A stretch of 46,057 nt of DNA from a virus, in IMG/VR virus record IMGVR_UViG_3300037311_000130; one strand, given 5' to 3'. Shown in pieces: positions 45,537-46,057 of this stretch (the stretch's first letter is position 1; every line of letters starts with the position of its first letter). A program made the position numbers and the translations under genes. Under the pieces are notes generated by a model. That model did not search any database. It saw only the letters and a program-made list of their open reading frames with translations, and was not told the DNA's origin.

Positions 45537-46057
45537 ATGGATATGAAAGCAAAACTAGAACAGATGGGCGCTTGCGCCGAAGCTGTCGCGTGGGTGGAAG
45601 ATCGTGACGCTGTCACGGCGTGGCGTGAATGCCAGCGCAGCGACTGGATGTTGTGGCTGTGCTACCAGCATGGCGTGCGCGTCGAGAGGCGCACCATGGT
45701 CGTCATCGCATGCGAGATCGCCCGCACGGTGCTGCACTTAGTGCCAGCTGGCGAAGATCGGCCGCGGCTAGCAATTGAAGCAGCTGAGGCATGGTTGCAC
45801 GATCCATCTGCCGCCGACGCCGACGCCGCCGCCGACGCCGCCGCCGCCGCCTACGCCGCCGCCTACGCCGCCGCCTACGCCGCCGACGCCGCCTACGCCG
45901 CCGCCGACGCCGCCGCCGCCTACGCCGCCTACGCCGCCGCCTACGCCGACGCCGCCGCCGCCCGCGCCGCCGCCCGCGCCGCCGCCGCCGCCGACGCCGC
46001 CGCCGCCCGCGCCGCCGCCCGCGCCGGCGCCCGCGCACAGCAAGCAGACATCGTGCG
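45537..46057 (+). CDS. N-terminal part of the wrap-around gene (184 aa in total, ends at nt 161): helical Trp/Cys N-domain followed by an Ala/Tyr/Asp repeat tract
   Basis: ATG at 45537 (or 45543). Reads MDMKAKLEQMGACAEAVAWVEDRDAVTAWRECQRSDWMLWLCYQHG..AIEAAEAWLHDPSAADADAAADAAAAAYAAAYAAAYAADAAYAAAD... There is no stop before the window end. The frame joins nt 128-161 through the 127-nt overlap. Confidence 0.7.
   Translation, partial: MDMKAKLEQMGACAEAVAWVEDRDAVTAWRECQRSDWMLWLCYQHGVRVERRTMVVIACEIARTVLHLVPAGEDRPRLAIEAAEAWLHDPSAADADAAADAAAAAYAAAYAAAYAADAAYAAADAAAAYAAYAAAYADAAAARAAARAAAAADAAAARAAARAGARAQQADIV
45809..46035 (+). repeat. GCC-rich coding microsatellite-like tract (GCC GCC GCC TAC / GCC GAC / GCC CGC units)
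   Basis: Read directly. It encodes the A/Y/D/R repeats on the plus strand and produces spurious poly-Arg and poly-Gly ORFs on the minus strand. Confidence 0.9.
45931..46057. repeat. Second copy of the terminal 127-nt overlap (equals nt 1-127)
   Basis: Exact identity checked base by base. Confidence 0.95.

Follow-up and report, generated by a model that had tools for sequence, protein, structure and literature searches.

Organisation of the locus

The DNA analysed here (hereafter the window) is the whole 46,057-nt virus record IMGVR_UViG_3300037311_000130, which represents a circle of 45,930 bp with a G+C content of 66.6%; positions 1–127 are identical to positions 45931–46057 (an exact match of 127 nt). 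Spanning this junction is an open reading frame (ORF) of 184 amino acids (aa), which starts with an ATG at 45537, runs to the end of the window, resumes at position 128 and stops with a TGA at 159–161, the latter overlapping the ATG (158–160) of a 612 aa ORF encoding an SNF2-family helicase by 4 nt (ATGA). The features of the region are collected in Table 1.

Table 1. Features around the junction-spanning gene (window coordinates).
Feature	Position	Strand	Evidence and remarks
Intrinsic-terminator-like hairpin	45424..45461	+	Perfect GC-rich stem of 11 bp with a 9-nt loop, then T7; marks the end of the upstream block of small genes on the + strand
Residues 1–90, conserved Cys/Trp-rich all-helical N-domain, six helices	45537..45806	+	Alignment A1; AlphaFold2 pLDDT 89–96; sub-threshold Imm5_like match; PHROG 38757
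Residues 91–167, Ala/Tyr/Asp/Arg tract, (GCC)n-derived coding repeat	45807..46037	+	Codon use, TRF, AlphaFold2 hairpin
Start of conserved C-terminal tail (QQADIVR...)	46038..46057, gene resumes at 128	+	Translation; tail motif conserved family-wide
Terminal overlap	1..127	+	Copy of 45931–46057 (end of tract and start of tail); linearisation artefact of circular assembly; JGI record continuous here
End of tail (KHMPTPPELP) and TGA stop (159–161)	128..161	+	Translation, JGI record
GGAG, a Shine-Dalgarno-like motif within the 3' end of the Imm5-like gene, 5 nt ahead of the SNF2 start codon	149..152	+	Sequence reading
SNF2-family helicase gene, 612 aa	158..1996	+	PF00176 SNF2-rel_dom 5.7e-27, Helicase_C 7.7e-11; ATG overlaps the upstream stop (ATGA)

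The original prediction of an ORF running across the junction, with a three-part architecture and an ATGA overlap with the SNF2 gene, is borne out by the window sequence together with a record from JGI. In contig Ga0484940_000766 of JGI 3300043244 (45,927 bp, cut elsewhere), which has zero mismatches to the window over 7.8 kb, the gene is unbroken and identical at 555 of 555 nt, and both the 184 aa gene and its 4-nt overlap with SNF2 are already called. That the ORF had appeared to be missed by the gene track is therefore due only to the position at which the contig was cut. When the SNF2 frame is read upstream from 1996 through 45791–46057 it is also open, with poly-Arg in the GCC tract, giving an ORF of 711 aa. 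This longer ORF with its poly-Arg N-terminus was rejected as a composition artefact because the SNF2 homologue of the most closely related phage (locus L041) aligns from residue 1.

The hairpin upstream of the gene lies within a 225-nt gap between the end of the preceding gene (45311) and position 45537, with stem arms at 45424–45434 and 45444–45454 followed by the T7 run at 45455–45461, and the surrounding region (45405–45475) folds with -33.9 kcal/mol (z = -2.6). The perfect intrinsic terminator proposed ahead of the gene is thus present as described; the scanning tool overlooked it, probably because the loop limit of that tool is 8 nt. Judged by its position it is plausible that the Imm5-like gene heads a transcription unit; the stretch from the terminator to the ATG at 45537 showed no σ70-like promoter.

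Elsewhere in the window, Pfam matches among the scanned ORFs of the blocks at 9370–42434 (- strand) and 2019–9178 (+ strand) include SU10-type major capsid and portal proteins, LPD38, a glycosyltransferase-like protein, a methyltransferase, and Pam3 gp33-like and gp34-like proteins. A DUF6876 gene is located upstream at 44390–44896, an ORF of 1,040 aa at 5396–8518 gave a weak primase zinc-finger match only, and no resolvase domain was detected at 8546–9178 by the Pfam scan. Between the - strand block and the small genes on the + strand there is a divergent intergenic region of ~620 nt (42435–43055, G+C ~0.55–0.57) containing a C13 run (~42510–42523), (CAA)8 (~42551–42574), (GA)n (~42582–42595) and two small hairpins with T runs behind them; it is possibly a control region whose tracts are prone to slippage. 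Nothing was found in the window by Rfam and tRNA scans. No near-identical DNA was found among GenBank phages, and tblastn against the deposited phage collection gave a single distant match (BK063670.1, 9073–9345, 31% identity). This match is a hypothetical protein from a Caudoviricetes virus whose assigned host belongs to the Methanomicrobiales, so that the Imm5-like family may extend to archaeal viruses. The 184 aa ORF is a genuine accessory gene in the early region of an SU10-like tailed phage.

Architecture and predicted structure of the protein

Alignment of the family (alignment A1) revealed a layout in three parts, consisting of the N-domain, a tract of highly variable length and composition and a conserved tail with the motif ADIVRkh.P. 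Invariant or nearly invariant in the N-domain are C13, W19, W29, C32, R34, D36, W37, W40, C59, G72, E73, R75, P76 and W86, and this domain matches PHROG 38757 at 6.6e-8. In the window protein the tract is composed of 56 Ala, 7 Asp, 7 Tyr, 5 Arg, 1 Ser and 1 Gly, while over the whole family it contains ~59% Ala followed by Tyr, Asp, Arg, Gly, Val, Glu and others. The non-Ala residues of the tract recur across the family with a coiled-coil-like period of 3.5 residues. The tail of the window protein reads QQADIVRKHMPTPPELP.

An AlphaFold2 model of the window protein, built on an alignment of 62 sequences (pLDDT 89.3, pTM 0.77), contains six short helices in the N-domain and two long helices (92–133 and 137–176) forming a hairpin, so that the tract, for which a structural model had been proposed as a check, is modelled as most of a long helical hairpin. 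A homologue with a short tract (P0001) was modelled with the same base and a short hairpin (pLDDT 90.7). The protein is accordingly predicted to consist of a compact all-helical base, corresponding to the N-domain, from which an Ala-rich antiparallel helical hairpin projects, and the topology of the hairpin suggests that the conserved ADIVR tail probably returns to the base. A pairing of an Asp/Tyr arm with an Arg arm was considered as a rule for the family and was rejected; both halves of the tract are mildly acidic on average and uncorrelated. Foldseek searches with both models gave no match below E = 0.4 in PDB, a search of BFVD with Foldseek returned uncharacterised homologues only, and a profile search against PDB sequences gave nothing significant.

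Family membership

With residues 1–120 as query, phmmer recovered 2,089 homologues at E ≤ 1e-3, the top one being 60% identical. When 1.84 billion cluster representatives were searched with a profile, 11,562 matched at E ≤ 1e-3 and 757 at E ≤ 1e-30, the size of the family here being counted as clusters at 50% identity. When compared with Pfam, the N-domain of the window protein aligns with PF21805 (Imm5_like, "Imm-5 like putative immunity protein") over residues 50–88 (profile positions 7–48) at 18.7 bits and E = 0.0017, under the gathering cutoff of 25 bits, and the full-length protein gives no match, the similarity being detected only with the tract removed. Among its close homologues PF21805 is matched by 33 of 62 at E ≤ 1e-3 and by 45 of 62 at E ≤ 1, and PF22011 (DUF6931) by 12 of 62 at E ≤ 1e-3. 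Proteins annotated with PF21805 are found from the window protein by phmmer with E-values down to 3e-27 and 45–60% identity.

The window protein shares with PF21805 and PF22011 the core helix pair (...ARTVLHLVPxGEDRPRxAIEAAExW...), the Ala-rich helical region and the [IV]VR tail, and the succession of the core motif GEDRPRxAIEAAExW, an Ala-rich helical segment and the tail is complete in alignment A1. It differs in its sub-threshold score, and the PF21805 model, judging from the match to residues 50–88, leaves the first ~45 residues (GACxEAxxW...AWxxCxRxDWMLW) uncovered. By these sequence criteria the window protein is a divergent member of Imm5_like/DUF6931. The link to Imm-5-like proteins made in the original prediction was thus correct, and the family that a Pfam search of the N-domain was proposed to reveal is detectable, for the window protein itself below the cutoff and otherwise through its homologues.

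Neither PF14423 (Imm5) nor PF14434 (Imm6) is matched at E ≤ 1 by any of 62 sequences (the window protein and 61 close homologues). The family is tied to Imm5 and Imm6 through P0121, a protein of 2,410 aa with 12 tandem domains, since it scores 263 bits with Imm5_like, 86 with Imm5 and 36.5 with Imm6, matches the profile of alignment A1 at 8e-96 and is matched by the window protein at 1e-6; among the sequences compared it appears as the only such link. Its gene (L096, 7395–14627; JGI 3300035208 Ga0376279_0000342, 52 kb) is located on a phage-like contig together with two more Imm5_like genes, encoding 192 and 455 aa. The assignment of Imm5 and Imm6 as immunity proteins that counter deaminase and CdiA-CT toxins is a prediction based on gene context alone (PMC3482391). 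No account of function turned up in the literature on Imm5_like, DUF6931, alanine-rich phage repeats and phage polyimmunity, in agreement with the earlier statement that no function is established.

In one further homologue, P0251 (L097, 766–1665), the Imm5_like domain follows an N-terminal extension of ~130 aa that has no Pfam match and contains the sequence GKGVYFSEDYP. We take this sequence to resemble the GxGxYF motif of ADP-ribosyltransferases/PARP, and from its sequence P0251 could be a fusion of toxin and immunity protein.

The tract as a coding microsatellite

The codon use of the tract differs sharply from that of its surroundings. In the window GCC encodes 55 of the 56 Ala residues of the tract, in agreement with the proposed GCC microsatellite, compared with 2 of 14 in the N-domain of the same gene and 37% in the genome (the latter taken from eight large genes), and TRF detected repeats with periods of 9 and 12 nt over 45810–46031. 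Over the family the median share of the most used Ala codon is 0.93 in the tract and 0.26 in the N-domain, with the preferred codon being GCC, GCT, GCG or GCA depending on the lineage and bearing no relation to genomic G+C (for example 111 of 111 GCC at 54% G+C and 71 of 71 GCT at 36% G+C). Since tracts made of a single codon are not expected from translational selection, they point to turnover of a repeat at the DNA level.

Comparisons of close relatives revealed how the tract changes. Within the clusters at 90% identity, P0281 has the sequence of P0054 with an additional exact tandem duplication of 21 aa, and five proteins that share one tail and whose N-domains are 92.5–97.9% identical differ in the length of the tract (14, 18, 33, 59 and 84 aa). 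Two phage contigs (L053 and L055) share 99.5% identity over 9.5 kb upstream but have tracts of 73 and 104 aa, respectively, with a mosaic boundary also at the gene. The reading frame is kept; in 60 of the 65 complete viral loci (proteins of 145–283 aa) the tract is followed in frame by the conserved tail according to a strict pattern, and the other five have near-variants of it. The window and the JGI record (L094), both of which span the tract, agree exactly, and a Logan contig of the same phage (L095) begins inside it. The suggested hypervariability in length therefore holds between close relatives (14–84 aa with flanks more than 92% identical) but not between the window and the JGI record, which are identical. 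Codon use and relatives together show that the tract behaves as a coding microsatellite, which in the family, as judged from these comparisons, grows, shrinks and mutates in frame at a much higher rate than its flanks.

A programmed diversification, for instance by a diversity-generating retroelement, could be thought of instead of passive repeat slippage, as most of the variation falls within a single stretch of the gene and the variable codons are mostly of the NAC or GNC types. However, the scanned ORFs of the window contain no reverse transcriptase domain and no second tract-like stretch that might act as a template was found in it, on which grounds such an element was excluded for the window. 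Much of the variation is moreover in length, including the exact tandem duplication, which is typical of slippage or unequal recombination and not of adenine-directed mutagenesis, and this alternative is left with hardly any probability.

The tract is also a common assembly breakpoint. Contigs end inside it in 15 of the 80 viral loci (L001–L080), the Logan contig mentioned above starts at window coordinate 67 and the junction of the window itself likewise falls in the tract; through such breaks the Imm5-like gene is routinely truncated or overlooked by gene callers. Five of the six reading frames are open across the tract and all six are open or nearly so. Together with the contig junction in the tract this might suggest a non-functional locus, that is a spurious ORF arising from low-complexity, GC-rich repeat DNA or from faulty assembly at the junction, and some members of the clusters at 90% identity are indeed frame-broken after the tract: P0097, P0258, P0260 and P0262 (clusters of P0026 and P0097) have near-identical N-domains and a short tract followed by unrelated or out-of-frame sequence. 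These may represent assembly errors or chimeric joins, dead or frameshifted alleles, or truncated contigs. The non-repetitive N-domain and the in-frame tail are, however, conserved over thousands of homologues, the AlphaFold2 models are confident and an identical unbroken gene is present in a second record, so that a spurious ORF, already refuted by the homology and the independent record, is scarcely credible. Taken together, the statement that the gene is real, that it belongs to Imm5_like/DUF6931 and that it carries a fast-changing, repeat-encoded hairpin is highly probable.

The tract resembles bacterial contingency loci in that a short-unit DNA repeat lies inside a gene and near-identical alleles, here in relatives, differ in length. 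It differs in the unit, and because this is a triplet, slippage alters the length of the protein and does not switch it on or off. The type I antifreeze proteins of fish have long Ala-rich helices with regularly spaced polar residues, and both a strong GCC bias and an origin by repeat expansion have been reported for them. They share no homology with the phage proteins, which are cytoplasmic and have a conserved globular base, and there is no reason to expect ice binding.

Distribution and gene arrays

Pattern searches gave 445 matches in 2.9 million viral contigs compared with 109 in 32 million genome contigs, a rough enrichment only as the two search patterns differed, and the nine confirmed genome loci are all from metagenome-assembled genomes (MAGs). 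From this rough comparison the family seems much more frequent on viral contigs than in genomes. More than one copy of the Imm5-like gene is present in 8 of 94 loci, the window having a single copy. The most extensive array is on a contig from a Chloroflexi MAG (JAKAHU010000019.1; L081, 1–14437), where six paralogues are located within 14 kb on both strands. On reading this contig, the paralogues were seen to lie among methyltransferase- and replication-like ORFs, and some of their tracts are degenerate and non-repetitive.

Neighbouring genes and the SNF2 overlap

The neighbourhood of the gene was surveyed in 80 viral loci, including flanks of up to 10 kb in either direction, giving 138 immediate neighbours. 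The Imm5-like gene has early, replication and recombination genes around it and lies downstream of HTH genes of the Cro/CI type, and its immediate neighbours are highly diverse, comprising primases, helicases, exonucleases, DnaA-like and RecT/PDDEXK proteins, HTH regulators and many uncharacterised genes. Clustering of the four neighbours on either side over the 80 loci gave no conserved partner, no cluster being present in more than three loci.

The overlap with the SNF2 gene had been taken to suggest a helicase partner, a decoy or a counter-defence factor, and the protein might accordingly be a dedicated partner of SNF2 (a subunit, regulator or decoy) made in a fixed ratio through translational coupling. 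The 4-nt ATGA overlap is found both in the window and in the independent JGI record, and at one locus (L020) an SNF2-like gene lies directly upstream of the Imm5-like gene. This is, however, the only SNF2 gene among the 138 immediate neighbours, and an SNF2-like tblastn match within 10 kb was found in just 6 of the 80 loci at E ≤ 1e-5 (9 at E ≤ 1e-3), mostly kilobases away, so that the proposed survey of homologues beside SNF2 genes revealed no conserved linkage. In the most closely related phage (L041), whose structural genes are 32–74% and whose SNF2 is 52.5% identical to those of the window, the Imm5-like gene (9935–10462) and SNF2 (13480–15282) are 3 kb apart with other genes between them and in a different gene order. 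ATGA overlaps of 4 nt with neighbours of any kind, including unrelated ones, are common in the family, and the SNF2 gene has a GGAG of its own. A dedicated partnership is therefore very unlikely, and ordinary tight packing of an operon is the best explanation for the overlap.

The main rival to the function proposed below is an accessory factor of replication or recombination, where the protein would act as a scaffold or adaptor of the replisome or recombination machinery and the hairpin as a coiled-coil spacer. Its neighbours are often of the replication and recombination classes listed above, and in the window the gene belongs to a + strand block with SNF2 and the 1,040 aa ORF with its weak primase-type match. 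No single replication partner recurs, though, and gene arrays, a 12-domain protein and a fast-changing tract would be surprising in a core replication factor; in the early regions of phages, small accessory genes also generally lie between replication genes. We regard this alternative as improbable.

Proposed function

An apparent enrichment in viruses, gene arrays, a 12-domain protein, a position in the early region without a fixed partner and one fast-evolving segment are signatures typical of conflict genes. No toxin domain was detected among the neighbours in the window, nor in the 25 listed of the 36 Pfam families of the 138 immediate neighbours, and the defence models of PADLOC gave no meaningful match.

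It is because of these signatures that we favour a protein that would act alone, as a stoichiometric binder or inhibitor in conflicts between phage and host or between phages, in a role akin to that of the immunity proteins of the polymorphic toxin systems that gave the family its name. The conserved base would then serve as the fold or scaffold, and the variable hairpin as a surface or spacer that can quickly be re-tuned. For the statement as a whole, that is a genuine accessory gene of the Imm5_like/DUF6931 family with a fast-changing, repeat-encoded hairpin, acting as a stand-alone binder or inhibitor in such conflicts, we estimate a probability of about 0.5.

Like Imm5 (PF14423) and Imm6 (PF14434) the window protein is small and mostly α-helical, and its family forms tandem arrays and multi-domain proteins that recall the "polyimmunity" loci and proteins described for polymorphic toxin systems (Zhang et al. 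2012, PMC3482391). In contrast to Imm5 and Imm6, the loci of the family are mostly phage contigs and not bacterial toxin loci, no toxin gene was found adjoining, and direct matches to the two families are lacking for the window protein and its 61 homologues. A bolder version of the stand-alone binder can be formulated, where the hairpin would be a slippage-driven, re-tunable module and the single genes, arrays and 12-domain proteins would make up a portable "poly-immunity" repertoire of phages. Such a repertoire would neutralise toxins of the host or of rival elements, for example nucleic-acid deaminase or nuclease effectors, with the specificity set by the length of the tract and by changes of Tyr, Asp, Trp and Arg. 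This is a tentative proposal to which we give a small chance; if true, it would reveal a class of counter-defence proteins in phages that is widespread, so far undescribed and equipped with a mutational mechanism of its own.

Conclusion

The contribution of the window itself is modest, namely one more member of the family, with no special relation to SNF2. The family comprises more than 11,000 clusters at 50% identity, appears strongly enriched on viral contigs and is without experimental function or solved structure. No description of the hypervariable hairpin encoded by a single codon, the apparent enrichment in phages, the arrays or the 12-domain protein was found in the literature, and the family is a reasonable candidate for experiments. 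If it proves to be a counter-defence or immunity module, it would give phage annotation a common and easily recognised class of genes and provide a natural example of a binding or spacing element that evolves through a coding microsatellite.
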